DNA of 64,000 bases from the NCBI GenBank assembly GCA_020845475.1, contig JADLFN010000072.1, forward strand, positions 2,849 to 66,848, read 5' to 3'. Each line of letters begins with the position of its first letter. The first letter of the stretch is position 1. Position numbers and translations under genes: made by a program. The notes beneath the pieces were generated by a model. It was given only the letters and a program-made list of their open reading frames with translations, did not search any database and was not told the origin of the DNA. The DNA is from Planctomycetota bacterium. GTDB taxonomy: Bacteria > Planctomycetota > UBA8742 > UBA2392. This document shows positions 11,601 through 45,494 of the stretch, one piece after another.

Positions 11601-12734
11601 GAGCACGGCGCGACCGCACTGCAGGCGAGTTTCCGCATCCAGGCCTTCGGAGGCGCCGATGTCTGCAAGCACCGAAAGCGCCTGGCGTTTGAAATTGATG
11701 TCGTTCTCCTGCGCAAGCAGGAACAGATCGCTCAAGGCCACGGAGATGTTTCCACCGAGCTTGATCTGAGCGCCAATCTGGTAAAGCTTGAAGCGCTTGA
11801 ATTCGCTGGCGAGATCTTTGATACCACCGTAGCGCGAAGACGCCTTCTGGTACTGATCGACGCACATCTGAAGGTACTTTTTGTCGTAGCCAAGCTCGCT
11901 GGTCATGATCTCCGCGGCCTTTAACCAGCCGCGCAAAGCCTGGAAACCGATGTCGTAGCCCGGCGGGTAATCGCCCAGCTGGCTGGGAACTTCAAGGTAT
12001 TTCGCCACCGCACCTTCAAAGTTGCGCGACGCCCGCGCAACATCGCCGAGTAACAAGAGCGCGTCCACATACTCCACCGAGATCGGTAGCAGGAAAACTG
12101 CTTCGTTCACGGCGTCTTCACAGCGCTTGAAATGGTCGTTGCGATCCTTGCTGCCTTCAGCGAAGGTGAGGCCGTTGACGTAGTGTGCAACGCAGACGTT
12201 GTAAACACAGGTGCGATAGCGTGCGCCCTCCGCGGCAGCGAAAAACGCTTCGTCGCCCATTTGGCTGCGCGTGCTTTCAAGCAACTTCTGCTCGGCCTCA
12301 AGCACCTCCAGCGCCTTTCCAACGAGGCTGCGCGCACCTTCGGCGTCACTGCGGGCGCGGGCCTTTGCAATCTCCAGGCGCAGGACTGCGAGCTCGACCT
12401 TCTCAGCCGATTTTTCGGGGTCTCCGTATAGGCGCTCAGCCTTTTCGTAGCCTTCGTCGCGATCCTTTTCATTGCCGGACTTGAGGAAGTCGTCGTCGGC
12501 CTTGGCCTTGTACACGCGCGCCAGCGCAGACTTGGCCTTGGACTTCTCGGCGTCGCTGCCGCTATCCATTTGTTTGTTGAGAACGCGCTCGGCTTCTTCG
12601 TACATCTTCAGACGCACGCCGAGGTAGTAGCCGTACTCAGAAAGATCGCGAGCACCTGCCGCCGGTGCAAACGAGCATGCAGCCACCACAACGACCAAGC
12701 AGGACGCGACAAAGGAAAAAAGACGATTGGACAT
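8655..12734 (-). CDS. giant secreted TPR-like/alpha-helical repeat protein (~1360 aa)
   Basis: track ORF 8655..12995 trimmed to internal Met MSNRLFSFVASCLVVVVAACSFA (signal peptide); long helical-repeat composition. Confidence 0.6.
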   Translation of the reverse strand: MSNRLFSFVASCLVVVVAACSFAPAAGARDLSEYGYYLGVRLKMYEEAERVLNKQMDSGSDAEKSKAKSALARVYKAKADDDFLKSGNEKDRDEGYEKAERLYGDPEKSAEKVELAVLRLEIAKARARSDAEGARSLVGKALEVLEAEQKLLESTRSQMGDEAFFAAAEGARYRTCVYNVCVAHYVNGLTFAEGSKDRNDHFKRCEDAVNEAVFLLPISVEYVDALLLLGDVARASRNFEGAVAKYLEVPSQLGDYPPGYDIGFQALRGWLKAAEIMTSELGYDKKYLQMCVDQYQKASSRYGGIKDLASEFKRFKLYQIGAQIKLGGNISVALSDLFLLAQENDINFKRQALSVLADIGASEGLDAETRLQCGRAVLKDALVVGYGPIFKVLRAYQVLLSQCNSVQAFESYAPECYRQLGFIYSDLLQRYMDAAMIYREACLRTGYFRGKYGKDFDTAPEKGIEIPAHMKDKSGAPICDLMVDTKAVYDFPAEMSKAYAKVAGWLVSSKFGDPKNAEFAKIKEEADELKALFSGLDAQLDQAFGKASEKYNGKLYGPAAVRFAKLPPTYKKFRLALYYAANAYMAQLDDQTARHPSRMGEDFEQESGQYFEEMKRRHGEDLAALPRELWENVETPHFEAMANATLKGDVAIWHKALYFFKKYMLFVVLRNWEEVKDSVDVKKHDFVDAFMMISDGMAQRWRAQPERSRQPNEELQIMGRAAYGLAYLLRNPRKNDPNMTSVLNAGRPTALRILKSHWELFGPHFPKEDVDVQKAVLNLSFGCLADEKDGDGCEAILKAYEAAFGSSDEGKKKVAYYIAQIYLVYLDTLDPKVQALNSASTNLRSLFNQLKLGMFQTESMFLQDKDAAKKFSDAKTTLDKDKAMADYFWKFWMSERTLGGDPKKFPAATVGPEVLPILKKKWEEFAESYPKRWGEAQKAEFDALVKDKSYDAIRTEAQKLVASGSNTEIVDKLQAKGEGPFGTLALQVSLNTSHLRYFTGTLFVYEFGGFLEETSAGLDERLRPMLTKVLTYYERYQETKANQQATEARSQFVVGKNFFRVRDYKRAAGYLQRCLDLLRKDNFFVNENVIPVNKQSMTAGLSAKGMMDANTKSGEELELKYQLGRSYFELYKQNKDVENLKKAAVLIRRAYCFVLLRNANEMGKNQRSGKTFTMTFKEQIELYYLDTIDTLIAINLELNVLKAPKVDYPPFVDQFNIWLDPEAKDAKSGKVKMQEMPANEAEYLWHARRIHFDQWTSFAQLNDHPFRPEWRRSLRAWGDLTIDVLKKYGKAGEGIKDLVDVDSLKKLSDEVQVVLDIIRNKSLASLGYDDVETKTFKKGLKDCADSLLARAKDLKLTVK

Positions 12735-12879
12735 AGCAACGTCTCCGTGTTGCCTCGGAGTAAACGAGGTAGCTAACCTCGGTAGGGCCCAGTGAGCCGC
12801 GTTAGAGCGACTCGGTATAGCATCACTAACGCCTGAAACAACCCAAGGTTCGAATGAAGGACTCACCGCCCGCAACTGC

Positions 12880-12917
12880 AGCATCAAAACAAAGCCCCCG
12901 CAGACGCTGCGGGGGCT
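12880..12917 (-). terminator. Rho-independent terminator-like hairpin downstream of secretin gene
   Basis: perfect 10-11 bp GC-rich stem AGCCCCCGCAG/CTGCGGGGGCT followed on minus strand by UUGUUUUGAU. Confidence 0.6.
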
Positions 12918-12936
12918 TACCAACTTGCAGAAAAGT

Positions 12937-15639
12937 CTAGCGATCTTTCGGAGCGCTTGCACCGGATCCAAAGTTGTGGTCGATTTCCTCTTCAAGGTCG
13001 ATGATGCGGGCCGTGACGATGATGATCACGTCCTGACGAACCGTGCTCTTACCCTTACGCTTGAACAGTGAACCGATCAAAGGCAGGTCGGAGAGGATCG
13101 GAATGCCGCTTTCCACGTCAGTCTCGCTCATGGTGCGCATGCCGCCAATCACAAAGCTGCCGCCATCGGGCACGGTGACCGTGGTACGAATACGCTGCAA
13201 AGAGAGCTGCGGAGTCTGGATCGCAACCGGCGCGCCCACGCCGAGCGAAGTGGTGAACGTGGGAATCGGGCGCAGGAGGATGGCCAAAGTCGGGCGCAGC
13301 TCAAGCGTGATGTAACGGCGGTCAGCCGAAACCGTCGGACGCACGTCGAGCACGATACCGTCGCGGATGATGCTTACGACGGGGTCGGCCACGGCGATAC
13401 CCGTTGCAGTGCTGGTGTTGAAGTCCGAAATGTAAGCCACCTCGTTGAGCACGCTCACGTGCGCGCGCTGGGTGTTGTGAACTGTAACGCGAGGTGCCGT
13501 CAACAGCGTGGCACGTTCGCGCTTGCGCACGGCGCGGATGATGGCGTTGATCTCGGGGTTATCGACAAACGCGAGCTGGAAAGAAGCTCCGCCCGAGTTG
13601 GTCAAGCCCAAGCCGCCGCGCGTTCCGCCGAGCGCCTTGTCAAACAGGTTCTCAATGCGCGTGCGCTGGTCAATGCGCACGTTGCCCGAGGGCGGCATAT
13701 CCTGGAAGAACACACCGGCGTCGTTGCCCGTGCCACCGGGGCCGGCGGGATTGGCGTTGTTGCCGAACTGGATGTCGTCAAGCGCGGCCGGAACCGGAGG
13801 TGCGCCGGGCGGCGGAATCTGGGGGCTGCCACCGATGCCGCGGAAATCCAGGCCGATGTCCTCGAGGAAGTCGTCGCGAATCGTGATGAAGCGCGACTCC
13901 ACCGTCACGGTCAAGCCCTGCGAACGGCGCAGGTCATTGAGCAGTTGCGCCACCTTCTCAATGTTGTCCGGGTTGTTCAGGACAATCAGATCCTGCTGAC
14001 GCGTGGAAATACCGTGGCCTTCCTTCGACCACGAATCAGAATCAATGGACTGTTCAATCACGTCCTGCAGCTCGTCAATCGTCAGCGGCGTGGCGTCAGG
14101 AACATCTGTATCCGTACCGAAGCGATCGGTGTCCGTTTGATCGGTGCGCAGGCGCGGCTCATCGCCCTTGAACGTGCGCAGGTTGAGCAGCAAGTCCGCC
14201 ACGTTGAACACGCGGCGTGCCACGTTGCGGCCTTCATCCGAGCCCTTGGCGCCGATGATCACCGCGCCGTGCTGCACGCGCCATGAAAGATCGAGTGAGT
14301 CCGTGATCAGATTCAAGGCCTGGCGCAGTTTCACGCGGCCCACGTCCAGAGTAACCGTGCCATCGCCGGGAACGTCCTTGGCGCGCAACACGTTAATCTT
14401 GCCTTCCTGACGCAGGCGCTTGATTACGTCGTCAAGCGGCTGTTCTTCAAACGAAAGGTTCATGTCCACCGTGTCCAGCGCGCTGCGCACCGCGAGGTCT
14501 TCCTTCGAAAGCGGCGTGCGGCGGGAACGCTCGAGGCGATCCTGGCGATCGAGCGTGCGCTGCCAGTCTTCATAATCCGGCAGGGTTACATCGCCCGTGG
14601 GGAAAGAAGCCGCGTTCACCACCTGGGCCATGACCTGCTTCCAGTTGGAGTTGAAGGCTTCCCACGTGTCGCGGTCTTCTCGGCCGCGCTGCAGGTCGCG
14701 CGCGATGCCCTTGAGCTTGATGACATCCTGGTTGTAAGGATCTTCGCGCAGGATCTGGTTGAGCACGATGATCGTTTCGCCGTATTCACGGCGATCGAAA
14801 AATTCCTTGCTCTTGTTGTACAGGTTGCGGATCTGCTCGCGATAGCGGTTGAGCTCTTCCTGCATCTGCAGCTCGCGGATGCGGCGCTCCTGCTCCTGGG
14901 TGCTGACGTAATCCTTGACGCGGGCGTCTTCTCGCTTGCTGCGGGCTTCCTCGAGCATCAGGCGCGCTTCGCGCTCTTTGGCTTCAGTGTCAAGCATGTA
15001 GCCGGTCCAGCGGATGATGTCGAGAACCTTCTCGAGCTCATCCATGGCCTTGGTGTAATCACCGGCGCGAATCAGACGATCGGCGCGATCAAGACCTGCG
15101 TCGATTTCGTAAATCGCTTCGGCGCGCATCGCTTGATCTTCGTTGCTGCGGGCGCGCGAAATGTTCGCCGCCTCGCCGCGGCGCAGGCCAAGCAGGTTGG
15201 CGACATCATCGCGCACCTGGGCTGCGTTCTTGTTGTCTGGGTCCATCTCCAGCGCGTCGCTGGCGAGTTTGTAGGCCTTCTCGTAATTTGCGTTGCGGTA
15301 ATGCGTGTAGGCTTCATCGGCGTAATAATTCGCCAATGCCTTGATTTCGTCGGCGCTGGCCTTGTTGGAGGCGCCTGCGCCCGAACGGTTGCCGCGCTGA
15401 GCAACGGGCTCAGTCTTGCCTGCATCGGCTGCGTCCGGCTTGGCAGCCGATTCGCGATTGGTTTCGCGCGCAGGCTCACTCTTGCCGTTGGCGCGGAAGT
15501 CAGAAACGTAGTCGTCGCGGGTGGGTTTCACTTCAGCGTCAGCGGCCGGCTTCACCGAGGACGCGCAGGCGGCAATGAAACCAAAAGAAATGGCGGCGGC
15601 AACCAACGCAAAGCGCTTCTGAAGCCAAAGCTTCGTCAT
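12937..15639 (-). CDS. secretin (PilQ/GspD family) with long N-terminal TPR/coiled-coil extension
   Basis: C-terminal secretin signature ...TAPRVTVHNTQRAHVSV...VPDGGSFVIGGM...IPILSDLPLIGSLFKRKGKSTVRQDVIIIVTARII; start trimmed to MTKLWLQKRF signal sequence. Confidence 0.8.
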   Translation of the reverse strand: MTKLWLQKRFALVAAAISFGFIAACASSVKPAADAEVKPTRDDYVSDFRANGKSEPARETNRESAAKPDAADAGKTEPVAQRGNRSGAGASNKASADEIKALANYYADEAYTHYRNANYEKAYKLASDALEMDPDNKNAAQVRDDVANLLGLRRGEAANISRARSNEDQAMRAEAIYEIDAGLDRADRLIRAGDYTKAMDELEKVLDIIRWTGYMLDTEAKEREARLMLEEARSKREDARVKDYVSTQEQERRIRELQMQEELNRYREQIRNLYNKSKEFFDRREYGETIIVLNQILREDPYNQDVIKLKGIARDLQRGREDRDTWEAFNSNWKQVMAQVVNAASFPTGDVTLPDYEDWQRTLDRQDRLERSRRTPLSKEDLAVRSALDTVDMNLSFEEQPLDDVIKRLRQEGKINVLRAKDVPGDGTVTLDVGRVKLRQALNLITDSLDLSWRVQHGAVIIGAKGSDEGRNVARRVFNVADLLLNLRTFKGDEPRLRTDQTDTDRFGTDTDVPDATPLTIDELQDVIEQSIDSDSWSKEGHGISTRQQDLIVLNNPDNIEKVAQLLNDLRRSQGLTVTVESRFITIRDDFLEDIGLDFRGIGGSPQIPPPGAPPVPAALDDIQFGNNANPAGPGGTGNDAGVFFQDMPPSGNVRIDQRTRIENLFDKALGGTRGGLGLTNSGGASFQLAFVDNPEINAIIRAVRKRERATLLTAPRVTVHNTQRAHVSVLNEVAYISDFNTSTATGIAVADPVVSIIRDGIVLDVRPTVSADRRYITLELRPTLAILLRPIPTFTTSLGVGAPVAIQTPQLSLQRIRTTVTVPDGGSFVIGGMRTMSETDVESGIPILSDLPLIGSLFKRKGKSTVRQDVIIIVTARIIDLEEEIDHNFGSGASAPKDR

Positions 15640-15822
15640 AATTGCTCCACAGCGTCGGGGTAGATGGGGACGCGGGAAGAGGGGATCTGCTTGTCGGGGG
15701 CGATGTAAGTGTAACGGAGACAAGGGGTGTGTCAACAGCCAAAGTTTCAGGCCCATAAATCGAAGCTGGGGTTGATGCCTGGACGGCACCAACCCCAGAG
15801 TCTCGCGAGACTTCAGAAGGTG

Positions 15823-17760
15823 CTACTTGTCAACGTAGTAAACGCCCCAGATGTCCATTTTGCCTTCGCCCATGTCGAGCGTTCGCTTTTCGATACCTCC
15901 GTAAATCAGGCCGGTCTCCATGCTGATGGCGCGCAGGCCGAGCTTGTCGGCGTCAGCAGGCACGCCACCGTCGTCAAAGAACTGGATCATGTCCTTGCCC
16001 AGTCCGCCAATGGCAGCCTCGGCATAGCCCACGGTGTCTCCCTTTTTCACGTCCTGGTATGCAACGATCCGGTACCACTGGTTGCCGACTTGCGTCCAGC
16101 GCGTGATCTCAAAGCGAGCGCTGGCGCCACCCTTGCCGACGCAGATCACGCGAACGCCGAGCGGATTGGCCATGCCGCTGGGGTCAACGTTGGCCGCAGT
16201 CGCGGGATCTTTGGTATCGCGCGGCAGCACGAACCTCAATGCGCTGCCTTTCTGTCCAAACTCCATATCAGAGCCCGTGAACTGGTTGAAAATCCATCCC
16301 GTGGCGAAATCCAGAACGTCGCCGGAGGCTTCCAGCGCCTTGTACCACTCAGCGTTGGCTTTGCCTTCTGCGTCAACGACGGCGATCTCATAGCCGCGTC
16401 CCTTCAGAGCTGAGGCCTTGCCGCTCGCGCCGACTTCCTCGCCCTGGCCGACGCTGACAATCACTTCGACCGCACGCCACACGCCACCAATGGGATGGAA
16501 CTTGCGCAACTTGATGCGCGCAAGGTCGGATTTGCCCAGCCAGGACATCTGAATGCGGTTGAAGACAACAACGGGGCGGCCTGCCATTACAGCCGCGTCG
16601 CTGGTATGGTAATCGGCCGCGAAAGTATCGTCGCTCTTGATGCCTTCCTTGAGCTTGCTCTTGGTCGTGGCGCGCACTGCGTAAACGTAAGTGTATTCAG
16701 CCTTGAAGCTAACGTCGGCGAACGTGAGTTCCGTCAGGGGCGTATCGTTGAGACGCTCCCACTCACTGGGCCTGGGCGGCGCAACAGGTTTGACGCGGCC
16801 CTTGGGATCCTTTTCAAAGTCGGGTTCCGACTTGCCTCCATTGCCGGGCAGTGCCTGCCATGCTATGAAATCCTTCCTCCATGCGTCTTCCTTCTTGCGA
16901 TGGGCCGGAAGGTCAACCGTGTTGTAGCGTAGCTCACGGTCCTTTATGTCTGCTTTACTCTTGCGCATGACCCAATAACCCAGGTCAGCCGGAGCATCCT
17001 TCAGGCTCGGTGCCGTCCAGCTCACGTTGATCACGAAGGACTTGGCGTCTGCGGCGGCTTTTACGTCGACCGGAGGCGCGAGGTCGGCGTCAGGGTTCAC
17101 TGTCGGACGAGCGCCGTATTCCACTCGATCCAGGAACTTGTCTTTGTTTTTGTCCTTGTCTTCGAAGTCCGTGTTGCCCGTGCCATTCTCATACTCGACG
17201 CGCGAGAGCTTGCCGTCTTCGTTCGTATCATACTTGTCGAAATCGATGTCCTGTGCGCTCGGATTTGTGTCGTACTCCGTCTTCGTCAGATAGCCGTCCT
17301 TGTTGGTGTCCAGCGTACGGAACTTGATTCCGTCAAGCGACTTCTGCGTGTTGGCATACTCGGCTGGGCTCAGGCGGCCGTCTCCGTCTGCATCACTTCC
17401 TTTAAAGTCGGGTGCTCCGACAGGCGCCTCCAGAAACACACGGAACTGAGTAGGCAGGTCAAGAATCTTGTGCTCATCGGCGATCCTGGACGGAATCTTG
17501 CCGCCCTTCACCACGCCAAAAGCCTGATCTGCGCCGTTGAGACCCTCCGCGGAGAACGCAGGTACGGCTGCGGAAGGCTTGGGGTCGTTCAACTTGCTGT
17601 TAACTTGTGACACAGCGTCGTCAATCTTGCGCTTGGGCGCTTCTGTGTCGCCCAGCACGACTGCGAGCAACACGAACACCACCATCAACAGGCCGCCGCC
17701 GATCCAGGCCGCCATCGGGCCGAACTTGATGAGCGCGCTTTCGTTGGGTGCTTCCGCCAT
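15823..17760 (-). CDS. bitopic membrane protein with four EF-hand-type Ca-binding loops
   Basis: N-terminal TM helix; DADGDGRLSPAEY, DTNKDGYLTKTEY, DTNEDGKLSRVEY, DKDKNKDKFLDRVEY loops. Confidence 0.6.
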   Translation of the reverse strand: MAEAPNESALIKFGPMAAWIGGGLLMVVFVLLAVVLGDTEAPKRKIDDAVSQVNSKLNDPKPSAAVPAFSAEGLNGADQAFGVVKGGKIPSRIADEHKILDLPTQFRVFLEAPVGAPDFKGSDADGDGRLSPAEYANTQKSLDGIKFRTLDTNKDGYLTKTEYDTNPSAQDIDFDKYDTNEDGKLSRVEYENGTGNTDFEDKDKNKDKFLDRVEYGARPTVNPDADLAPPVDVKAAADAKSFVINVSWTAPSLKDAPADLGYWVMRKSKADIKDRELRYNTVDLPAHRKKEDAWRKDFIAWQALPGNGGKSEPDFEKDPKGRVKPVAPPRPSEWERLNDTPLTELTFADVSFKAEYTYVYAVRATTKSKLKEGIKSDDTFAADYHTSDAAVMAGRPVVVFNRIQMSWLGKSDLARIKLRKFHPIGGVWRAVEVIVSVGQGEEVGASGKASALKGRGYEIAVVDAEGKANAEWYKALEASGDVLDFATGWIFNQFTGSDMEFGQKGSALRFVLPRDTKDPATAANVDPSGMANPLGVRVICVGKGGASARFEITRWTQVGNQWYRIVAYQDVKKGDTVGYAEAAIGGLGKDMIQFFDDGGVPADADKLGLRAISMETGLIYGGIEKRTLDMGEGKMDIWGVYYVDK

Positions 17761-17815
17761 GACTGATCTCCACTGCCGATGATGTTCGATGCCTGCCGTT
17801 CAAAAATGCGCCGCG

Positions 17816-18877
17816 CTACTCAGCCGCTGTTGCCGCCGGCTTGGCGATCGCCTTCCAGTCCGGGTTGGCGCGAAGGGCAAACAACTTCAGGTCGTAACGC
17901 AACGGATGGCTGAAGACGAGCTTCTTCTCAAGGTCCGCTGCCACCGCCGCGCGCTTGCCGCTGGAACCGTTTTCGTCCATGCGGTTGGGCTCTTCGTCCT
18001 CGAGCCAGTCCTTTGGAATCTCCCACGCGCCGCGCTCAGCGTTGGTTACTTTGTACTGCGCCACATGAACACGCTCGGGCTGAACGCCCATGAGCGAAAC
18101 CAACGCAAAAGGAAGGCCGTCACGCTTGCCGTCACCCGTGCCCACCGTGGCTTCCGTGGGGCTGAGCAACGCGTCCAGCAATGCAAGACTGAAAGCGGGG
18201 TCCGCATCAAAGCTGAATGTGAACTCGTGCTTGAGCCAGGCTTCCTTGGGATCAGACGCGGCTTCCTGATTAAAGGCGCCGAACTCGAACTTGCGGAACA
18301 GGAACGATGAGCCCTTGAACTCGGCGCTGTTGAGCAGTTTCTCGCACGCGATGCAGACCTCGCGAATAACTTTCAGGCGTGCCTGGGCCTTTGGAATCTC
18401 GGCCGCCTGAAGGCGCTCGCGGCTCATTTCACCCTGCAGCGCAATCCAGAAGTTCTCTGACTCATCTTCTTCCTGGAAGCGTCCGCCCGCAGCAGCAAGC
18501 TTCTCCGGAATTCCGGAGACGTTCTTGAGGCGCGCAAACCGGCCTTTGAGCGCGGGGATTTCCTTGGAGGCCACTTCCGTGTTGAAGTCGTCGCTTGATG
18601 TGAACGTTTTCGTGAATTCAAAGAGTTTGGCGCCTGTTCCCTTTACCAGAGCGTCTTCCATTCCTTTGACTTCAGAAACGAACTTCTGCTGTGAGCCTTC
18701 GACGGCTTTGATGTCTCCGGCGGTAGGCACACCGGACTTCAAGGCGCCTTCCACCTGGGCGGCAGACTGATTTAACTTTTCTTCCGCGCCGGTCTTGGAG
18801 AGCACGCCCACGGCCATCATGACGATGCCCAGAAGGCCCAGCACACCCAGCAGAATGAAATGTAGAGAATCTTTCAT
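17816..18877 (-). CDS. bitopic membrane protein with periplasmic coiled coil (PilO-like position)
   Basis: single N-terminal TM (FILLGVLGLLGIVMMAVGVL) then helical region; sits between PilM-PilN fusion and secretin. Confidence 0.5.
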   Translation of the reverse strand: MKDSLHFILLGVLGLLGIVMMAVGVLSKTGAEEKLNQSAAQVEGALKSGVPTAGDIKAVEGSQQKFVSEVKGMEDALVKGTGAKLFEFTKTFTSSDDFNTEVASKEIPALKGRFARLKNVSGIPEKLAAAGGRFQEEDESENFWIALQGEMSRERLQAAEIPKAQARLKVIREVCIACEKLLNSAEFKGSSFLFRKFEFGAFNQEAASDPKEAWLKHEFTFSFDADPAFSLALLDALLSPTEATVGTGDGKRDGLPFALVSLMGVQPERVHVAQYKVTNAERGAWEIPKDWLEDEEPNRMDENGSSGKRAAVAADLEKKLVFSHPLRYDLKLFALRANPDWKAIAKPAATAAE

Positions 18878-18888
18878 GGTCGGGCCTC

Positions 18889-20940
18889 TTACTTCTGTTC
18901 TGCCGCGGGCGGCATCTCGATGGGCGAAAGTGAAACGGTGACCTGCACCCGGAACGGAGAAACGTAGCGCTTCAACGGCGTGGGCTTGGTTGCACCGAAA
19001 TTGTTACCGAGCAACGTGCGCACACCGACAGCCTTGTCCGCTTCCATGGAAACGTTGTCATAGGCCGTCTTGACCGTAAGCCCTGACCACTTGATCGCGC
19101 CGATTTCCGCTTCGCTCAAATCCTTCAACTGGCCGCGTACTTTCAACTCAGCGAGCAACGCAGCCTTTAACTTCGCATGCAGGAGACCGCCGTTGCCCTC
19201 GCTGCCGCCGACGAGATCGAACTCCGCTTTGTCGTAGGGCTCGCGCAGGCGCTGTTCCGTGGGTGCCGCGCGCTCCGTGCCCATGACCAGTCCCGACAGG
19301 GATGCCTCATAGCGGAATTCGCGCTTTACGGTGTGATAGCCGGATTGTTCTGCGGCGTCCGCCCCTGCCTCGCCCAATTGCACCCAGTTGCTCTCATTGG
19401 TGCTGGGCTTGATCATGAGCGCGATTTCTCCACCGCTCTCGGCCAGTTTGTTTACACGGAAATACTGGTGTTCCGGTGTAGCCTTGGCGAATTCCACAAG
19501 CGCTTCATCTGTGACACGCGCGATCAGTCCAGGCAAAATTGCCGCCGGCAACTCCAGGTGGCGCGTGACCTTGACGGCCTCTCCACCTTCGGCGGCGGGA
19601 GGAATCGTGTGCTCGGTGGAACCTACACGCCCCACCGTGACGTTGCGCAGACTCAAAGCCAGGAGCGCATTGGCGTCATTGGCCTGGGCCGCGGTGACCT
19701 TGGCTTTGGCCGCCGTGACGTCACCGGCTGATTTCGTCGCGGCTGCGGTTTTATCGTCCACTCCGCCACCGGCGCTGATACCAAGCAGCATGGCAACAAG
19801 ACCGCCGGCGAAAATCATGCCGCCCGCGGCGATCATGGGAACCTTGAGCCGCGCTTTGGCGCGGGCTTCAAGCCGCTCACGCGGCATCAGGTTAATGGTG
19901 TTCAGACCGGCGACACCGAGACCTTCAAGCGCAAGGCCGATGGCGACGGTGAGGCTCTGGATGTTGTCCTGAACCTCGGCGGGATCAACGCTGCGCGAAA
20001 GCTGCATGCGTGCGGGCGTTTCAACCTTGTGAACCTTGTATTGAAGCTGCTGCTCAAAGAACTTCTGGATGTTGATGAGCTTGGAGCCGTTGCCCATCAT
20101 CACCAGCTGGTTGATATTGGCGGCTTCATTCTGGCTCTTGTAGAAGCCCACCGCGCGGTAGATTTCGCCCACCATTTCCTTCAACGGCGGCTTCATGGCT
20201 TCGAAGACTGCCGCCGCGTCCTTGCTCTTGGCCGCGCGGCGCTTGAGTTTTTCGGCGTCATCGTCAGAAAGCTTGAAGCGCGCCTTGAGGGCTTTGGTGA
20301 TGTCGTTGCCGGCCACGGGCACCACGCGCACGTATGTCTTCTGGCCGTCGATGACAACGAGGTCGGTGTTCTCGGCTCCGATATCGATGGCGACGCAGCA
20401 GTTGGAAATGCCCTCGTCCAATTCAAACTTGACGTAGTTGTAGATACCCAGCGGTGCGACCTGAATGCCGGTGATTTCGAGGTTGGCGCTTTCGCACGCA
20501 TCGACGATTTCTTCAACGGCCTGGCGCTTGGCTGCGTAAAGGTTGACTTTGCGCTCATCGACTGCGCCGGGATCGTCGATCGTCTGGTAATCCCACACCG
20601 CCTGTTCCAGCGGAATCGGCACCTGTGACTTGGCCTCGTTCTCGATCGTCTCGCGAACCTTTTCGTCAGAAACCGGCGGCAGGCTGATAATGCGGCCGAG
20701 GGTGTTCTGACCCTTGATCGAGACGTAAACAACGTCGCCGCTCTTGACGCCATTCGCCACTCGGAAGGCACTGAGCGCCGCAGCCGTGGCGTCATTGACG
20801 CTCGTGCCGCTGCCCAACCCGTAATCGGAGAGGCTGATGATGGAAATCGCGTCAATGGTGACGGAACCGCGGTCTTCACTCAGTCGGACCGCTTTGATGC
20901 TCGATGTGCCGAGCTCAATACCCCAAGCTGTTTTCGCCAT
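18889..20940 (-). CDS. pilM: type IV pilus-like assembly protein, PilM (actin-fold ATPase) fused to PilN-like bitopic domain with extended periplasmic C-terminus
   Basis: N-term WGIELGTSSIKAV and actin-fold PilM similarity; residue ~355 INLMPRERLEARAKARL + TM helix resembles PilN N-terminus; start trimmed to MAKTAWG with GAGGAA RBS. Confidence 0.75.
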   Translation of the reverse strand: MAKTAWGIELGTSSIKAVRLSEDRGSVTIDAISIISLSDYGLGSGTSVNDATAAALSAFRVANGVKSGDVVYVSIKGQNTLGRIISLPPVSDEKVRETIENEAKSQVPIPLEQAVWDYQTIDDPGAVDERKVNLYAAKRQAVEEIVDACESANLEITGIQVAPLGIYNYVKFELDEGISNCCVAIDIGAENTDLVVIDGQKTYVRVVPVAGNDITKALKARFKLSDDDAEKLKRRAAKSKDAAAVFEAMKPPLKEMVGEIYRAVGFYKSQNEAANINQLVMMGNGSKLINIQKFFEQQLQYKVHKVETPARMQLSRSVDPAEVQDNIQSLTVAIGLALEGLGVAGLNTINLMPRERLEARAKARLKVPMIAAGGMIFAGGLVAMLLGISAGGGVDDKTAAATKSAGDVTAAKAKVTAAQANDANALLALSLRNVTVGRVGSTEHTIPPAAEGGEAVKVTRHLELPAAILPGLIARVTDEALVEFAKATPEHQYFRVNKLAESGGEIALMIKPSTNESNWVQLGEAGADAAEQSGYHTVKREFRYEASLSGLVMGTERAAPTEQRLREPYDKAEFDLVGGSEGNGGLLHAKLKAALLAELKVRGQLKDLSEAEIGAIKWSGLTVKTAYDNVSMEADKAVGVRTLLGNNFGATKPTPLKRYVSPFRVQVTVSLSPIEMPPAAEQK

Positions 20941-21093
20941 GGATTCCTCAGGTACTGCGCCGCGCATCCGGCGTTTTGGGCCAGAATCAGCTATCGCTTC
21001 AACGGCACGAAGCTGCCAAAAATGAGTGGCAGCGCGTCGCGCGAAACAGGAACCTTGGGGGTAGCCATAGCATGGCCAAGGCTTGCGCCGAAA

Positions 21094-39001: not shown

Positions 39002-40183
39002 ATGACAATGCTCAATCGCACGATCGTTGCGCTTTCTATTCTGGCGGTGCTGGCGCTGGGCGCGAGTGCCGAAGACGCCAAGCGTGACTACGACGCAAAG
39101 ATTGAAGGCGACTCCGCCGAGAACGTGAAGATCAAGATCGTCGCCAACAAGCCCGCCGACCAGACCTCGGCAAGGGCGACGGTCGAAACCTACAACCGCC
39201 TGCTGGGTTTCATCGGCGACCTCTTTTTCTACGAGGAATACCGCGAATTCAAGGAGAAGGCCGAGGCCATTGGGGAAAAGGTTGAACGCAGGGTCTGCGG
39301 CACGATCATCACTGAGGCCTGTCTCGATGAGATGTCCTTGCTGAAGAAGAAGCAGGAAGCCGAGCGCAAAGAAAAGGAAGCCGCGGACATCAAAGACGGC
39401 ATGACGCCCCGCCGCCGCATCCCCGCGAAAGTGACGGCCGAGAAGACAGATGGCGCTCACACGGTGATCGAAGTCGAGGAGGGCAGCGAATACTCTATGA
39501 AGAACCGCGACGGCAAGTGGGAAACAAAGTCCACGATCAACCAGCTGCGCTTCTACTGCGCCGCCAAGGACGGTGTGTGGCAGATTGACCGCGCTGAGAA
39601 GTTTGCCACCGATTACAGCGGCAAACCCGACAAAGACGGCAGATACCCGCAGGTGTGGAAGGAAGAAAAGATCATGGCCGGCATGCTTGGCTTCTTTGCA
39701 AGGCATGCCAACCTGGCCCCAGTTGCACCCGAAATTGATACGCCCGAGAAGTTGGCCCGCGCGGCTATCACCTGGTTGGGTGAAGCACGCCGCGCATCCA
39801 CCGATGGCCTGGCCCAGAATCTCTATGGTCAGGTTCTCGACCTGTTCAAACCGCTGTTCAGCGAGCGCAACCTGAAAGACAGCATGGCGGAAGCCGAGAA
39901 GCAGGGCGCAGAAGAAGCCAAGCGCCGGGAGCAGGAAGCCAAAGAAGATGCCGAGCGCAAGATTACGATCAAGGAAGCCGAGGGCGGTTGGCAGGCAATC
40001 ATAGCCGCGCGCGGCAAGTGGAGCCCTGAGATCGTGCTGACGATTGCGAAGACCGACAAGGGCCTGCGCATTTCCAAGGCGGCGCTGCGCCGCATGGAAA
40101 CGAAATACGACGACAAGGGCAATGCGACGGAGACAGAGAAACTGGAGCCATTCAACTCGCCCAGCCAGTTCGACTGGAACTAG
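39002..40183 (+). CDS. secreted hypothetical protein (signal peptide, Lys/Glu-rich)
   Basis: MTMLNRTIVALSILAVLALGASA signal peptide. Confidence 0.5.
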   Translation: MTMLNRTIVALSILAVLALGASAEDAKRDYDAKIEGDSAENVKIKIVANKPADQTSARATVETYNRLLGFIGDLFFYEEYREFKEKAEAIGEKVERRVCGTIITEACLDEMSLLKKKQEAERKEKEAADIKDGMTPRRRIPAKVTAEKTDGAHTVIEVEEGSEYSMKNRDGKWETKSTINQLRFYCAAKDGVWQIDRAEKFATDYSGKPDKDGRYPQVWKEEKIMAGMLGFFARHANLAPVAPEIDTPEKLARAAITWLGEARRASTDGLAQNLYGQVLDLFKPLFSERNLKDSMAEAEKQGAEEAKRREQEAKEDAERKITIKEAEGGWQAIIAARGKWSPEIVLTIAKTDKGLRISKAALRRMETKYDDKGNATETEKLEPFNSPSQFDWN

Positions 40184-40200: not shown

Positions 40201-40227
40201 GTAGGGGCGACGCATGCGTCGCCCTAC
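40201..40227. repeat. palindrome GTAGGGGCGACGCATGCGTCGCCCTAC (REP-like copy 3)
   Basis: between convergent gene ends. Confidence 0.75.
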
Positions 40228-40661
40228 CGGTTGAAGGTGGAGCTACCACCAACGAGGTCGGCCGTAACGATCAAATCGCGAGGCTCGCTGTCGTATACTC
40301 CGACGCATTTGGCTTTCCACTCGTTGTGCCGGCCGCCGAGCACGACGTAGTCAGCCGGTTGAAACTCTGAACCGGCCAACGCACCGCGCGGCATGTCGAG
40401 TTCCGCCATCGTCTGCGGAATTTTACCCGTGCGTTGATACACAACGCGGGCGCGGTCCTTCATCGCGCCCAGCGCCGCCCGGGCCTCGCTGGGGCGCGGC
40501 TCCTCTACACCGCTGGGCTGAATCGGCCAAAAGGCCATGAACCCGACCGCCGGCACAACCAAGCCGAGGATGAGCACTAACGGAATCCAGTCCGTCCACT
40601 TCACAACGTAAGCGGACCGAACTGTCGCGTGTACACCAGAAATCTGTTGTTCGTCCGCCAC
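40224..40661 (-). CDS. small bitopic membrane protein, pilin/pseudopilin-like paralog family (member 4)
   Basis: TM helix then conserved SEARAALGAMKDRARVVYQRTGK, C-terminal FNR; see findings. Confidence 0.6.
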   Translation of the reverse strand: MADEQQISGVHATVRSAYVVKWTDWIPLVLILGLVVPAVGFMAFWPIQPSGVEEPRPSEARAALGAMKDRARVVYQRTGKIPQTMAELDMPRGALAGSEFQPADYVVLGGRHNEWKAKCVGVYDSEPRDLIVTADLVGGSSTFNR

Positions 40662-40664
40662 CGC

Positions 40665-41093
40665 TCACCTATTGAACCGAGCCTCGCCTGTCTTGAGGTT
40701 GCATTCAAGCCGCAAATGACGCGGCTCTGCCGAATAGACATTGTGGCACTCCGCCCACCACGATTCCGGCGTGCCGCCGCAGGAGTAGTCGTTGTTCTTG
40801 AAGTATGTGCCGTCAAGTTCCGTTGCACCAAGCCCCAGGTCTTCCTTGCGGATTTCGGTCAGTTCGGGTCGTCGCTGACAGATGACGCGTGCGCGATCCT
40901 TCATGGCGCCCAGAGCGGATCTCGCTTCACTCGCATTGGGCGGGTCACCATTCTGGATCAGCGGAACTTGGCTGAGGACAACCACTCCAATCACCAGTAC
41001 CAACACAAACGCAATCGCCAGGTACTCGAGGCAGCTCGCAATCCTGCTCAGGATCGTTCTGGGGGCAGCAACAGTGTTCGCAGGCGCGGTCAT
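40665..41093 (-). CDS. small bitopic membrane protein, pilin/pseudopilin-like paralog family (member 3)
   Basis: TM helix, SEARSALGAMKDRARVICQRRPELTEI, C-terminal Cys pairs, ends ARFNR. Confidence 0.6.
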   Translation of the reverse strand: MTAPANTVAAPRTILSRIASCLEYLAIAFVLVLVIGVVVLSQVPLIQNGDPPNASEARSALGAMKDRARVICQRRPELTEIRKEDLGLGATELDGTYFKNNDYSCGGTPESWWAECHNVYSAEPRHLRLECNLKTGEARFNR

Positions 41094-41096
41094 GGC

Positions 41097-41573
41097 TTAC
41101 CTGTTGAACGACGCCGATCCCTGAACCAGGTTTGCCTCGATACGCAAATAGCGCGGCTCGGATTCATAGACGTTGTCGCACTGGGCCCACCATTTTTCCG
41201 GCGTGCCGCCGCAGGTGAAGTTCTCGCTGCTGAAGTAACTCCCGCTTAGCTCAATCTTGCCCATGCCGAGATCATCAAACGAGATCTCCTTCAGGGTCGG
41301 GTTTTTCTGGTACACAACCCGTGCACGGTCCTTCATTGCCCCCAGTGCGGCGCGAGCTTCTGCAGCTCTGACCTCGTCGCTCGGATGCCGCAATTGGTAC
41401 TCTTTGTAGGCAAAGCCAAGGCCCCAAAGCACGAGGAACAAGCCTACGGCAATCAACGCCAGCTTCCCCGGCCCGCCGATGGTGCGGTGCCAACCCGCCC
41501 CGCCGGCGCGACCACCATCTTGCGAGGCATCGGCATTCAATCGGGCAGGCTGTGTTGTCGACTTCGGTTCCAT
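41097..41573 (-). CDS. small bitopic membrane protein, pilin/pseudopilin-like paralog family (member 2)
   Basis: TM helix, AEARAALGAMKDRARVVYQKNPTLKEI, CGGTPEKWWAQCDNVY, ends ASFNR. Confidence 0.6.
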   Translation of the reverse strand: MEPKSTTQPARLNADASQDGGRAGGAGWHRTIGGPGKLALIAVGLFLVLWGLGFAYKEYQLRHPSDEVRAAEARAALGAMKDRARVVYQKNPTLKEISFDDLGMGKIELSGSYFSSENFTCGGTPEKWWAQCDNVYESEPRYLRIEANLVQGSASFNR

Positions 41574-41576
41574 GGG

Positions 41577-42191
41577 TCACCTATTGAAGCTCGTTCTGCC
41601 GGTAGCCAGATCGGCCGTCACAATCAGTTCCCTGGGCGAGGCCGAATACACACTGCTGCAGTGGGCCGTCCAACGCTCGGGGCTGGCGTTCGTGATGCGA
41701 TAGTGGCTTGCGTCGAAGTAGCTTCCGCGCAACTCCACATCGGTCAAACCCAGTTCCTTAAGCGTCGCGGGCGCTTTGCCGGTGCGCTGATAAACCACGC
41801 GCGCGCGATCTTTCATGGCGCCCAAAGCCGCGCGCGCTTCGCTGCTTCTGGCCTCGCCGCCGCTCGACGACCGAAGCGGAATCGCCGCAAGAGTGAGCAA
41901 CCCCAGCAGCAAGAGCACAAAAACCCACTGCAACGGAGTGCCGCCCAGCAAGCGCCCAACGAAACGACCCAAACGTCGCGCGGAGGGGACATGGACGACA
42001 TACCCATCAAATAGCGGTGGCGCGGCTTCGGCCCCGGGCTGCAAGCGGCTTCCCGCCCAGCGATAGGGCACCCCTCCCCGTGGTTTCCGCGCCACCGCCA
42101 TGCCGCGCGCCTTGCCGTACTTCATCCGCGCGGCCAGTTGATCGATCCAAATCAGATCCGTATCGCTGCGCATGCCGCCCCCAGAGCCCAT
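41577..42191 (-). CDS. small bitopic membrane protein, pilin/pseudopilin-like paralog family (member 1)
   Basis: TM helix, SEARAALGAMKDRARVVYQRTGKAPATLKEL, ends TSFNR; true start may be internal. Confidence 0.55.
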   Translation of the reverse strand: MGSGGGMRSDTDLIWIDQLAARMKYGKARGMAVARKPRGGVPYRWAGSRLQPGAEAAPPLFDGYVVHVPSARRLGRFVGRLLGGTPLQWVFVLLLLGLLTLAAIPLRSSSGGEARSSEARAALGAMKDRARVVYQRTGKAPATLKELGLTDVELRGSYFDASHYRITNASPERWTAHCSSVYSASPRELIVTADLATGRTSFNR

Positions 42192-42299
42192 TCCGGCACG
42201 TCATAATCATGTCATGCGTCCGTCATGTCCATAACATACCCCTTGGGCCGACGCCCGTCAAACGACTGCGCACGAAATTCCGCAAAGTAGGCTCGCGAC

Positions 42300-42919: not shown

Positions 42920-43666
42920 CTAGAGATCGAACTCAAGTCCAAGCGTCGCATGGTGGCCCGCAATGCGCCCTGTGCCGATGTACCAGTAGCCAACGACAAT
43001 TCCTACGGGCAGGAACGGGCGACCAATGGACAGCTTCGCACGAAGTTCGAAACCAGTTTTGGATCCGGTCGCAAATGGAATGTTAAGTGCCGCGCCGCCC
43101 TCGACGTGAACGATGAAGGCTCCCGCACCAGCCCACGCTTCAAGCCGCAAAGCGTCGAGCGTGGAAGCCGCGTCACGTCTGGCCGCGCGCTCAGTTGCGT
43201 CAGCATGGATCCAACCTGCCGCAGCGCCAGCCGACCATGAACCAACGTCCAACCGCCACCAGGGGTATTGATCCGCCCGTCGCGTCGAGAATGGCACATA
43301 TGTGCCTCGGTTGAATTCACCTCCAAAAGTGTAGCAGGCCATGACGCCGTAGCGGCGCGGGTTTGGACTGATGCTCCAGCCCTGCTCAAAAAACGCAGAA
43401 CCGCCGAGCGCGTGGCGCGAATCAGCGCCCGTCGAGCAAGACAGCCGGCTCCAAGGCACCCGAAACATCGCCTGTCCAAACGTCCATGCAACCCGGCTCG
43501 AAAACCGAAAGCTGGCATCGAAGTCCAGCAGCACCGGCGGGCCATCGCTGGATGAAATCGAACGGTCGGCGAATCGCCGGCTTGGGGACTCAGCTTCGGC
43601 AGCTCCTAATGCAGCGGCCGCACTGAGGAACAAAAGTATCGACAGGAGTTGCCAGCTAAAAGCCAT
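42920..43666 (-). CDS. secreted protein, probable outer-membrane beta-barrel (ends ...LGLEFDL)
   Basis: signal peptide; alternating hydrophobic pattern; C-terminal aromatic-x-hydrophobic. Confidence 0.45.
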   Translation of the reverse strand: MAFSWQLLSILLFLSAAAALGAAEAESPSRRFADRSISSSDGPPVLLDFDASFRFSSRVAWTFGQAMFRVPWSRLSCSTGADSRHALGGSAFFEQGWSISPNPRRYGVMACYTFGGEFNRGTYVPFSTRRADQYPWWRLDVGSWSAGAAAGWIHADATERAARRDAASTLDALRLEAWAGAGAFIVHVEGGAALNIPFATGSKTGFELRAKLSIGRPFLPVGIVVGYWYIGTGRIAGHHATLGLEFDL

Positions 43667-43671
43667 AGTGG

Positions 43672-44289
43672 CTACTCCGCGTCAAACAACTCCTTGACGT
43701 TCACCGCAAAACCCGGGAGCAGCTTTGAAATGGCGACATCGCCGCGCTTGCTGGTGCAATGCTCGACGTACTTCTTGCCCTTGAGCGCGAGCACGGTAAC
43801 CGTGCCCCTTTCGAAATCAGCGATCCAGTACTCGGAAATGCCTGCCGCGGCGTATTCTTCGCGCTTCGTTTCCAGATCCCGTTCTTCTCCGCCGGCGCTG
43901 ACGGCTTCGAATGCCAGGTCTGCGCCTTGCCATGCATCGTTGTGCCTCTTCGCGCCATTCTCACGCTTCAGAAACACAACATCCGGCAAGCGGATTGCAC
44001 CGGGCCGCGTTCGCACTCGCAGTCCCTCAAAGTGCACAATTCCAAGCTTGTAATTCGACACAAACAAGTTGAGTGCCAGAAAAAAGAACTTGGTAATCGC
44101 CTGGTGTTTTTCAGTCGGCATGGGAAGGAACTCCAGGCATCCGTCAACAAATTCTACGCCAACCTTGAAATCACGGCGCAGAAACTGGCCCTCAGTCCAG
44201 CAGCCCTGCAACGGGTACTCTATCTCGGCAAGCTCCCATACAGGCTCGCCGCGTTTGCTTCGATTGCGATAGTCAGTGGTTCCGGCCAT
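43672..44289 (-). CDS. Uma2-family (DUF820) putative restriction endonuclease-like protein
   Basis: EYWIADFE... motif and length typical of Uma2 family. Confidence 0.65.
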   Translation of the reverse strand: MAGTTDYRNRSKRGEPVWELAEIEYPLQGCWTEGQFLRRDFKVGVEFVDGCLEFLPMPTEKHQAITKFFFLALNLFVSNYKLGIVHFEGLRVRTRPGAIRLPDVVFLKRENGAKRHNDAWQGADLAFEAVSAGGEERDLETKREEYAAAGISEYWIADFERGTVTVLALKGKKYVEHCTSKRGDVAISKLLPGFAVNVKELFDAE

Positions 44290-44312: not shown

Positions 44313-45494
44313 CTACCTGTCCACCTCGCCCATCACGATGTCGATGGAGCCGATGATGGCGACGAGGTCTGCGACGAGCGCGCCCTTGGACATGTGATCC
44401 AAAATCGAGATGTTGCAGTAGGCGGGGCTGCGCACTTTGCAGCGGACGGGCTTGGGGCCTTTGCCGTCGCTGATGATGTGGAATCCAAGTTCGCCGCGCG
44501 GGTTCTCCACGGCAAGATAGACCTCGCCGGCGGGCGCCTTGAAGCCGAGCTGCTGCTTGGCGATCTTGGCGTCGTTGACGGGCAGATTGTCGGGATTGTC
44601 GGCACCGCCGGGCAAATCTTTGATCGCCTGGCGGATGATCTTGACGCTTTCGAGCATCTCCCAGACGCGAACGTAATAGCGGTTCCAGCAGTCGCCGATC
44701 ACGCCCTCTTCACCCTTGGCCGTGATCACGTTGAAACTGAACCTGTCGTAAATCGAGTAAGGGTTGTCGCGGCGCAAATCGCGGTCGATGCCGCTGCCGC
44801 GCAGCACGGGGCCTGTGAGCCCCCAGGCAATCGCCATCTCGGGCGGAATCACGCCCACGCCGCATGTGCGCTCAAGGAACACGCCGTTGCCGGTGAGCAG
44901 CTCGTTGTACTCGGGAACTTTCTTCTCGAACCAATCGAGGAAGTTGAGAATCTTCGGGATCAGGTAGGGCGGGAAGTCGCGCTTCACGCCGCCGATCGAG
45001 ATGTAGTGGTAATTCAGGCGCTGCCCGCACATATCCTCAAGCAGGCGCAAAATCATCTCGCGCTCGCGGAAGCAGTGCAAAAATGGCGTGATCGCGCCGA
45101 CGTCCAGGCCGTAAGTGCCCACACTCATCAGGTGCGATGCGATGCGGCTCAATTCCGCCGCGATGATGCGCAGATACTGGCCGCGCTCGGGCACGGCTTC
45201 TCGTACGCCGGCAAGTTCCTCCACGGCGAGACAGTAGCCGAGATTGTTGCACATGGCCGCAAGGTAATCCATGCGGTCGGTGTAGGGCACGTACTGGATG
45301 TATGTGACGTTCTCGGCGATTTTTTCGGCGCAACGATGCAAAAAGCCGCAATGGCTTTCGCTTGAGAGCACCATTTCACCGTCGGTGCGGATGATGACCT
45401 TGAAAACGCCGTGCGTAGAAGGGTGCTGCGGGCCCATGTTGAGCAGCAGCTCTTCGGTCTTGATGTCCGCCGGAAGATTTTTCGTACCAGCCAT
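44313..45494 (-). CDS. nuoD: NADH-quinone oxidoreductase subunit D (49 kDa / NuoD family)
   Basis: ELLLNMGPQHPSTHGVFKV N-terminus and full-length NuoD similarity; not in a nuo operon here. Confidence 0.8.
   Translation of the reverse strand: MAGTKNLPADIKTEELLLNMGPQHPSTHGVFKVIIRTDGEMVLSSESHCGFLHRCAEKIAENVTYIQYVPYTDRMDYLAAMCNNLGYCLAVEELAGVREAVPERGQYLRIIAAELSRIASHLMSVGTYGLDVGAITPFLHCFREREMILRLLEDMCGQRLNYHYISIGGVKRDFPPYLIPKILNFLDWFEKKVPEYNELLTGNGVFLERTCGVGVIPPEMAIAWGLTGPVLRGSGIDRDLRRDNPYSIYDRFSFNVITAKGEEGVIGDCWNRYYVRVWEMLESVKIIRQAIKDLPGGADNPDNLPVNDAKIAKQQLGFKAPAGEVYLAVENPRGELGFHIISDGKGPKPVRCKVRSPAYCNISILDHMSKGALVADLVAIIGSIDIVMGEVDR

Follow-up and report, generated by a model that had tools for sequence, protein, structure and literature searches.

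We analysed a 64,000-nucleotide stretch of the Planctomycetota bacterium assembly GCA_020845475.1 (contig JADLFN010000072.1, positions 2,849 to 66,848; hereafter the window) and found that four tandem genes on its minus strand were related to the subunits of type IV pili although they had lost the signal by which such proteins are recognised. The genes were designated g1 (41577..42191, 204 amino acids (aa)), g2 (41097..41573, 158 aa), g3 (40665..41093, 142 aa) and g4 (40224..40661, 145 aa, with a GTG start), and their open reading frames (ORFs) were exactly those described in an initial annotation of this DNA. We propose, with a probability of about 0.55, that their products are membrane-tethered, uncleaved and non-polymerising pilin heads, in which the conserved face of the helical segment alpha1-C serves as the functional surface. 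The g1 orthologs began at the Met7 codon (window 42173), and the g2 protein was identical to IT461_14615, a protein of an NCBI metagenome-assembled genome (MAG) named Planctomycetes bacterium.

The relationship to pilins was established by a profile search with the four window proteins, which recovered 101 relatives. About 30 of them were 125-128 aa long and carried the prepilin domain PF07963; they started with M..KGFTLIELLIVVVIVGILALAAIPLI(A/Q)SNTEEARSSEARAALGAMKDRARVVYQ, continued with the same motif as the array proteins and ended in SFNR, so that they can be classified as textbook type IV prepilins. Over the mature region, these canonical members were 45-55% identical to the window proteins. 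In the MAGs PLA1 (locus L002), Bin_91R (L001) and GCA_964267665.1 (L006), the canonical pilin gene was the first of a series that continued with a 175-aa ORF, a minor pilin carrying PF07963, an ORF of ~565 aa, PilM, three small ORFs and a secretin. One of these genomes, GCA_964267665.1, held both this canonical cluster and a syntenic array with degenerate leaders. Moreover, a profile search of the PDB aligned the motif of the array proteins with helix alpha1 in pilins from Geobacter, Myxococcus and Neisseria. The pilin-like character proposed in the initial annotation was therefore correct, because the proteins were homologous to genuine pilins, and g1-g4 can be considered true relatives of the type IV pilus subunit that descended from the lineage's own major pilin.

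The closest known proteins were type IVa major pilins (PilA/PilE), in particular the canonical Planctomycetota pilins such as P0040, P0067 and L002 9962-10348. The likeness to the latter extended across the whole mature region and included the alpha1-C motif, the FNR end, the predicted alpha1 helix with a four-stranded sheet and the same predicted single span with the N-terminus inside and the C-terminus outside (N-in/C-out) before processing. Unlike these pilins, the window proteins were not encoded next to pilus machinery and lacked the PF07963/IPR012902 signal. Some family members bore the JGI COG labels PulG or PilE, and thus the similarity to pilins was not new to annotation pipelines. 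Across the GTDB representative genomes, a scan located just three loci, all of them in Planctomycetota MAGs. One canonical homolog (P0054) was labelled 'Gammaproteobacteria bacterium', but since it came from a 1.3-kb contig we treated this label as unreliable.

The four array proteins were paralogs with 43-47% identity, and their alignment contained 34 invariant columns, including EARxALGAMKDRARV and the C-terminal FNR. The motif (g1 EARAALGAMKDRAR, invariant, at 41799..41840; g2, 41319-41360; g3, 40887-40928; g4, 40446-40487; all on the minus strand) occurred four times in the window, on one strand and only within g1-g4. Its near-invariance had been noted correctly in the initial annotation, whereas the proposed SEAR start did not apply to g2, which had AEAR. 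The proteins ended in SFNR, SFNR, RFNR and TFNR, so that the FNR part of the reported (S/R)FNR end was invariant and its first residue deviated in one gene. Likewise, the cysteine pair CGGTPE.WWA.C was indeed present in two members (g2 and g3), but g1 and g4 had a single Cys, which was the family-invariant one. The suggested resemblance to the pilin D-region disulfide was not borne out, as the pair was located in the first beta-hairpin and the canonical members had one Cys.

Scans of g1-g4 against Pfam and NCBIfam gave no match even at E<=10, in agreement with the earlier remark that the family could not be recognised. The proteins fitted a planctomycetal EARAALGAMKDRARV...FNR head family, unnamed and with no Pfam model, that is characterised by the alpha1-C motif, the invariant Cys and FNR, and they matched its members in the profile search with E = 1e-73 to 1e-30. 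AlphaFold2 models gave a pilin fold, namely alpha1 with a four-stranded sheet. The g3 model (predicted local distance difference test score (pLDDT) 80) consisted of a transmembrane (TM) helix, a break, a helix at residues 52-74 and four strands. In the g1 model, the head had a pLDDT of 90-96, and most of the N-terminal 85 residues, with the exception of two short helices, scored below 50. Thus, the lollipop fold, with alpha1-C packed on an antiparallel beta-sheet, was present in the predicted models of the array proteins.

Type IV pilins are defined, and are found in genome surveys, by the class III signal peptide. In this signal, a hydrophilic leader with Gly or Ala as its last residue precedes 20-25 hydrophobic residues, often including Glu5, which pairs with the adjacent subunit's N-terminal amine in the filament core (PMC10191384). 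As the initial annotation had stated, a canonical G-F-T-L-I-E site was absent from every real ORF of the window, and none of g1-g4 matched PF07963 at E<=10, whereas the canonical homologs carried this domain. To compare the boundaries, all sequences were placed in register by anchoring them on the alpha1-C motif. In g1, the boundary read LLG-G-T-P-L-Q-W...G14...LAAIP22L, with Gly-1, Thr2, Gly14 and Pro22 retained, Phe1 replaced by Gly and Glu5 by Gln. The boundary of g2 was GPGK-LALIAVG, with Lys at -1, Gly only at -2 and Ala or Ile at the Glu5 position; that of g3 was IAS-CLEY (IAG-CLE in its orthologs), and that of g4, KWTDW-IPLVL, had no Gly or Ala. Accordingly, g1 alone of the four had an in-register Gly-1. 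Glu5 was found in none of them, and g3 and g4 had no acidic residue in register with it.

The loss of constraint extended into alpha1-N (positions 1-28), which was 90% identical among 31 canonical members versus 18% among 54 N-extended members. In the same sets, whose heads had diverged equally, identity was 51% and 46% for the head and 89% and 82% for alpha1-C. Moreover, positions 23-34 contained on average 0.26 Pro and Gly residues in canonical members versus 2.7 in N-extended ones (2, 1, 4 and 4 in the window proteins; the g4 linker, IQPSGVEEPRPS, was Pro-rich), and AlphaFold2 broke the helix at this Pro/Gly linker in the g3 and g1 models. The cytoplasmic N-termini comprised 22-85 aa in the window copies versus 5-7 aa in the canonical pilins. 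Taken together, the loss of Glu5, the loss of alpha1-N conservation and the broken alpha1 argue that these proteins no longer polymerise. The longest N-terminus belonged to g1, which consisted of a conserved cytoplasmic extension of ~85 aa, the degenerate site LLGG-TPLQW, a TM helix, alpha1-C and the pilin head. A homology search with this extension alone (89 aa) gave no match and missed even its own orthologs, and was therefore uninformative owing to a word-index limit.

The single TM helix per protein given in the initial annotation agreed with our analysis, where each protein had one strongly hydrophobic core of 19 residues with a mean Kyte-Doolittle value of 2.2-2.9. The cores were located on the minus strand at 41406-41462 (g2), 40965-41021 (g3) and 40530-40586 (g4). 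In g1, the TM segment that corresponds to the former alpha1-N (41871..41942, minus strand) kept Gly14, Pro22 and LAAIPL in register with the canonical pilins. Lys and Arg were enriched on the N-terminal side of the cores and acidic residues followed them, which suggests that each protein spans the membrane once in the N-in/C-out orientation.

From these features we infer that the array proteins are not cleaved, do not polymerise, have this topology and perhaps bind a partner. In place of the class III signal, they have a longer cytoplasmic N-terminus, a generic TM helix and then a Pro/Gly-rich linker, while the head, comprising alpha1-C and the four-stranded sheet, is kept. Such proteins would insert N-in/C-out through Sec, as prepilins do, but would neither be cleaved by prepilin peptidase nor enter a filament, so that the heads would stay in the periplasm, anchored in the cytoplasmic membrane. 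The alpha1-C face, EARAALGAMKDRARVVYQ, was as conserved as in the canonical pilin and is therefore a probable functional surface; it might bind the canonical pilin's own partner, which could be the assembly machinery or the pilin itself.

The use of the head outside filaments had parallels in the family. When 1.84 billion representative proteins were searched with a profile of the head alone, it matched only 47 clusters at E<=0.001, 31 of them at E<=1e-10; the pilin-head family was thus very small. Its architectures included the canonical prepilins and N-extended single-span forms, and also a form with a lipoprotein signal (P0105), a signal peptide with a coiled coil and two heads (P0102), two heads alone (P0021), a signal peptide with a domain of ~230 aa and a head (P0053, P0094, P0103 and L003), and a signal peptide with a head and a C-terminal multi-TM domain (P0114, P0121 and P0126). 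The MAG PLA1 carried both the L003 gene (9242-10237) and the canonical pilin of L002. Since heads occurred on lipoprotein, Sec-secreted and multi-TM fusions that had no class III signal, the head is likely to work outside filaments in this lineage. Modular type IV pilins, such as PilB of S. sanguinis, also combine a pilin module with other modules (PMC8179133). In the known cases, however, the class III signal is kept and the modules are added C-terminally, whereas in the present family the signal was lost or replaced in the array proteins and the head was grafted onto other proteins in relatives. In the literature on signal-less or N-extended pilin paralogs in Planctomycetota we found no description of this family, and the combination of a degenerate signal, a relaxed alpha1-N, a conserved alpha1-C and modular reuse of the head appears to be undescribed. 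A lone member of 196 aa in GCA_964267665.1 (L004 10001-10591) had a low-complexity N-terminus of ~65 aa rich in Pro, Gln and Tyr, followed by SGFPTWAIV...; it kept Gly-Phe, had lost Glu5 and contained a 6-residue insertion in alpha1-N, and it retained the canonical linker LIASNTDEARSS.

Several observations weigh against tethered heads. A boundary Gly was found in about half of the non-canonical subfamilies (GG-TPLQW, SG-FPTW, RG-FGI, IAG-CLE and AG-TLALIAVG), a pattern to be expected if prepilin peptidase still cleaved these proteins at the end of very long leaders. Class III signals are not delimited by the length of their leader, and they contain Glu5 'often, not always' (PMC10191384). Contacts within a filament could explain the near-invariance of alpha1-C equally well. 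Additionally, the conclusions on cleavage and localisation were deduced from sequence, and an interaction partner was not found.

It is accordingly possible, and we hold this view tentatively as the less probable one, that g1-g4 are bona fide type IV pilins with leaders of 22-85 aa, cleaved after the boundary Gly to give filament subunits without Glu5 that form a tip or priming set of four or serve as alternative subunits. The exact canonical register of Gly-1, Thr2, Gly14 and Pro22 in g1 fits such processing, as do the GG in all but one of ~17 g1-type sequences (the exception, P0044, had RDFAEIG) and the Gly or Gly-Phe at the boundary in several other subfamilies. On a metagenome contig (L012), a canonical leader was joined to a g1-type head at the first array position. 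Minor pilins that lack Glu5 are known at filament tips, and minor pilins occur in sets of four (PMC10191384). However, the known Glu5-less tip minor pilins and pseudopilins of the GspK and PilK/PilX class retain both a conserved alpha1-N and a class III signal that can be cleaved, and members of four-gene minor pilin operons are mutually very divergent, whereas the array genes were close paralogs of a major pilin with degenerate signals. The combination of T2SSG domain and class III signal by which GspG-type major pseudopilins are recognised was likewise absent from g1-g4. Cleavage after a boundary Gly is hard to reconcile with g4, which had neither Gly nor Ala there, or with the Lys at -1 of g2, and the Ser of g3 in place of the Gly of its orthologs suggests an unconstrained site. 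Furthermore, alpha1-N, the most conserved part of all pilins including the minor ones, was only 11-21% identical among the four window proteins, the Pro/Gly linkers broke alpha1, PF07963 did not match, and the array adjoined no pilus machinery either in the window or in five relatives. Prepilin leaders are, to our knowledge, ~30 aa long at most. Within the array, g1 was the least degenerate copy and would be the one most likely still to be processed.

Whether processed or tethered, the four proteins showed signs of function. The array was located between DUF218 and PGK in five related assemblies, one of them named Planctomycetota_g_UBA2392, with PGK, DUF218 and NuoD as its flanks and no pilus machinery beside it, as in the window, and it comprised 4-6 genes in relatives of the genus UBA2392: 204, 166, 144, 142, 159 and 145 aa in L007/L008 and 198, 166, 159, 98 and 127 aa in L005, with other sets in L009/L010 and L011. 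The ratios of nonsynonymous to synonymous substitution rates (dN/dS) between orthologs were 0.14-0.33 (0.19-0.28 for g1 and 0.14-0.24 for g4), which indicates purifying selection on all four genes. For g2 and its counterpart in L007, the full-length value of 0.53 included an unrelated 5' part, and it was 0.13 over the homologous part. The g1 extension had a dN/dS of 0.20-0.33 against three more distant orthologs. Of the seven ortholog comparisons of alpha1-C, five gave a ratio of 0.03-0.09 and two gave 0.16-0.23. Because synonymous sites in the motif varied freely between both paralogs and orthologs, its invariance reflects constraint on the protein; the same variation excluded recent gene conversion or a DNA-level element as its cause.

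These data bear on the suggestion that the genes have no function, being either annotation artefacts or pilin pseudogenes in decay, which we regard as extremely improbable. Truncated copies do exist in relatives, with 127 and 115 aa in L009 and 98 aa in L005, yet purifying selection acted on the four window genes and on the g1 extension, synteny was kept in at least five genomes, and the heads were predicted by AlphaFold2 at high confidence. The pseudogene reading was thus ruled out by dN/dS together with translational coupling. The truncated copies themselves (L009 9521-9904 and 10484-10831, L005 11126-11422, and an 84-aa copy at L006 10001-10255) included one that represented the canonical pilin of GCA_964267665.1 and ended at SYFTSR; they may be real pseudogenes or sequence errors in the MAGs.

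Comparison with the closest relative, L007 (~92% nucleotide identity in the flanks), revealed rearrangements within the array. Namely, g1 was collinear with its L007 counterpart, and gene 3 of L007 was absent from the window. The g2 genes of the two genomes were 93.7% identical in nucleotide sequence from the first motif codon (41360) to the end, and their 5' 213 nt were unrelated. Finally, g3 was the product of an unequal crossover, its 5' part matching gene 4 of L007 and its 3' part gene 5. A further junction was found in L012 1-755 (ENA ERZ27258543, k141_42028), where a canonical N-terminus, MSRHGFTLIELL..., was placed on a g1-type head and a g2-type gene began 3 nt downstream; the change from canonical to g1-type similarity was located within motif codons 46-58. 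This contig may have arisen by natural recombination or may reflect an ancestral arrangement; an assembly chimera is less likely. In a neighbour-joining tree of the heads, the canonical P0015 and the Sec fusion P0053 nested inside the g1 clade, and the N-extended SGFPTW group nested within the canonical clade, although canonical heads were largely apart from array heads. On a 2.2-kb ENA contig, the 162-aa P0101 had a canonical leader and motif joined right after VVYQRTP to a PDZ domain; it is another junction at the motif edge and may be an assembly chimera.

Such junctions recall Neisseria pilS, where tandem head copies also lack the canonical N-terminal coding region and have breakpoints at conserved segments. 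The array might by analogy be a reservoir of head cassettes, with the alpha1-C coding stretch as the junction at which heads recombine into the expressed canonical pilin gene and so vary the surface of the pilus, but we consider this quite unlikely. It would account for the mosaicism at the motif (the g2 pair, 94% identical from the first motif codon and unrelated upstream), for the crossover between a canonical N-terminus and a g1-type head in L012 and the presence of a g1-type head on the Sec fusion P0053, and for the copy number of 4-6 with an unequal-crossover fusion. In contrast to pilS, however, the array copies were complete coupled ORFs with their own TM helices, evolved under purifying selection and did not have homogenised junction nucleotides. 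All copies had start codons, Shine-Dalgarno (SD)-like coupling and their own TM segments, and for every ortholog pair dN/dS over the homologous length stayed under 0.35; they therefore appear to be expressed proteins and not silent cassettes. The synonymous sites of the motif were not homogenised, a metagenome contig of 755 nt carried the only canonical/array chimera that was seen, and canonical heads clustered largely apart from array heads in the tree. Silent cassettes of the pilS type were ruled out by the dN/dS values and translational coupling. A donor role like that of pilS may nevertheless coexist with tethered heads or with long-leader pilins. A broader but still unlikely possibility, to which we attached slightly more weight than to a mere reservoir, is that the head is a mobile module with alpha1-C as its splice point, exchanged by homologous recombination among the canonical pilin, the array copies and the Sec or lipoprotein fusions. 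In that case, the array copies would function as membrane proteins and at the same time serve as a donor pool diversifying the pilus surface. Planctomycetota would then have a pilE/pilS-like variation system whose 'silent' cassettes are themselves expressed.

The initial annotation had also suggested that the four proteins might be substrates or fibre subunits for a secretin locus elsewhere in the window, and this found no support. The locus (8655-20967, minus strand) encoded a 692-aa PilM fusion (18889-20967), in which PilM was joined to a C-terminal region of ~340 aa with a TM segment, a 951-aa secretin with TPR and STN domains (12937-15792), a 353-aa bitopic ORF, a 645-aa EF-hand protein and a 1446-aa TPR protein. 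It can be described as an atypical type IV pilus or type II secretion system-like locus with no adjacent pilin gene. Among those window genes that were scanned, none encoded a prepilin peptidase. Its PilM and secretin were 24% and 31% identical, respectively, to those of the canonical-pilin cluster of relatives. That g1-g4 are fibre or pseudopilus subunits dedicated to this PilM-secretin locus at 12.9-21 kb of the window is very unlikely in our view. The locus is unusual and has no pilin gene of its own nearby, which speaks for such a link, but 19 kb of housekeeping genes (UDG, DHH, FAA hydrolase, GroEL, Rpe and PGK) lay between the two, gene context and cluster comparison revealed nothing that tied them together, and every argument against polymerisation applies here too.

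The four proteins would be produced from a single transcript. The spacing in the ORF list of the window was 3 nt at each of the three junctions, and SD-like elements preceded the downstream genes on the minus strand: AGGTGA at 41577..41582, formed by the last Arg codon and stop of g1 and located 4 nt before the g2 start, AGGTAA at 41097-41102 before g3, and AGGTGA at 40665-40670 before g4. The invariant C-terminal Arg was encoded by AGG, followed by TGA or TAA, in g1, g2 and g3, and the last gene, g4, ended in CGG TAG. These elements are predicted to couple the array genes translationally, and the four genes probably form one operon. Upstream of g1, in a divergent intergenic region of 108 nt, two overlapping sigma-70-like promoter matches were found at 42203..42261 (minus strand) versus 0.6 expected; they were consensus matches only. 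At the other end, a perfect 20-nt GC-rich palindrome, GGGCGACGCATGCGTCGCCC (40205..40224), overlapped the g4 stop codon between convergent genes and is likely to be a bidirectional terminator hairpin despite having no T-run.

The convergent neighbour (39002-40183, plus strand) encoded a 393-aa signal-peptide protein with no Pfam match, which was kept beside the array in L007, L009 and L011 (391 aa) and was absent in L005. On the other side, a putative endonuclease of the Uma2 family (43672-44289, minus strand) and a 248-aa signal-peptide protein (42920-43666, minus strand) were located between DUF218 and a stand-alone NuoD-like gene (44313-45494), an interval that varied among relatives.

Thus, the array represents a case in which a pilin head was kept under strong selection after the loss of the signal and of the polymerisation helix, in one lineage that also offers canonical members for comparison. 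Tethered heads with affinity for the pilus machinery or for the pilin would constitute a new kind of type IV filament regulator or accessory. If the proteins are still processed, their leaders of 22-85 aa would be far longer than those known. Either outcome, tethered or processed, would widen what counts as a pilin.

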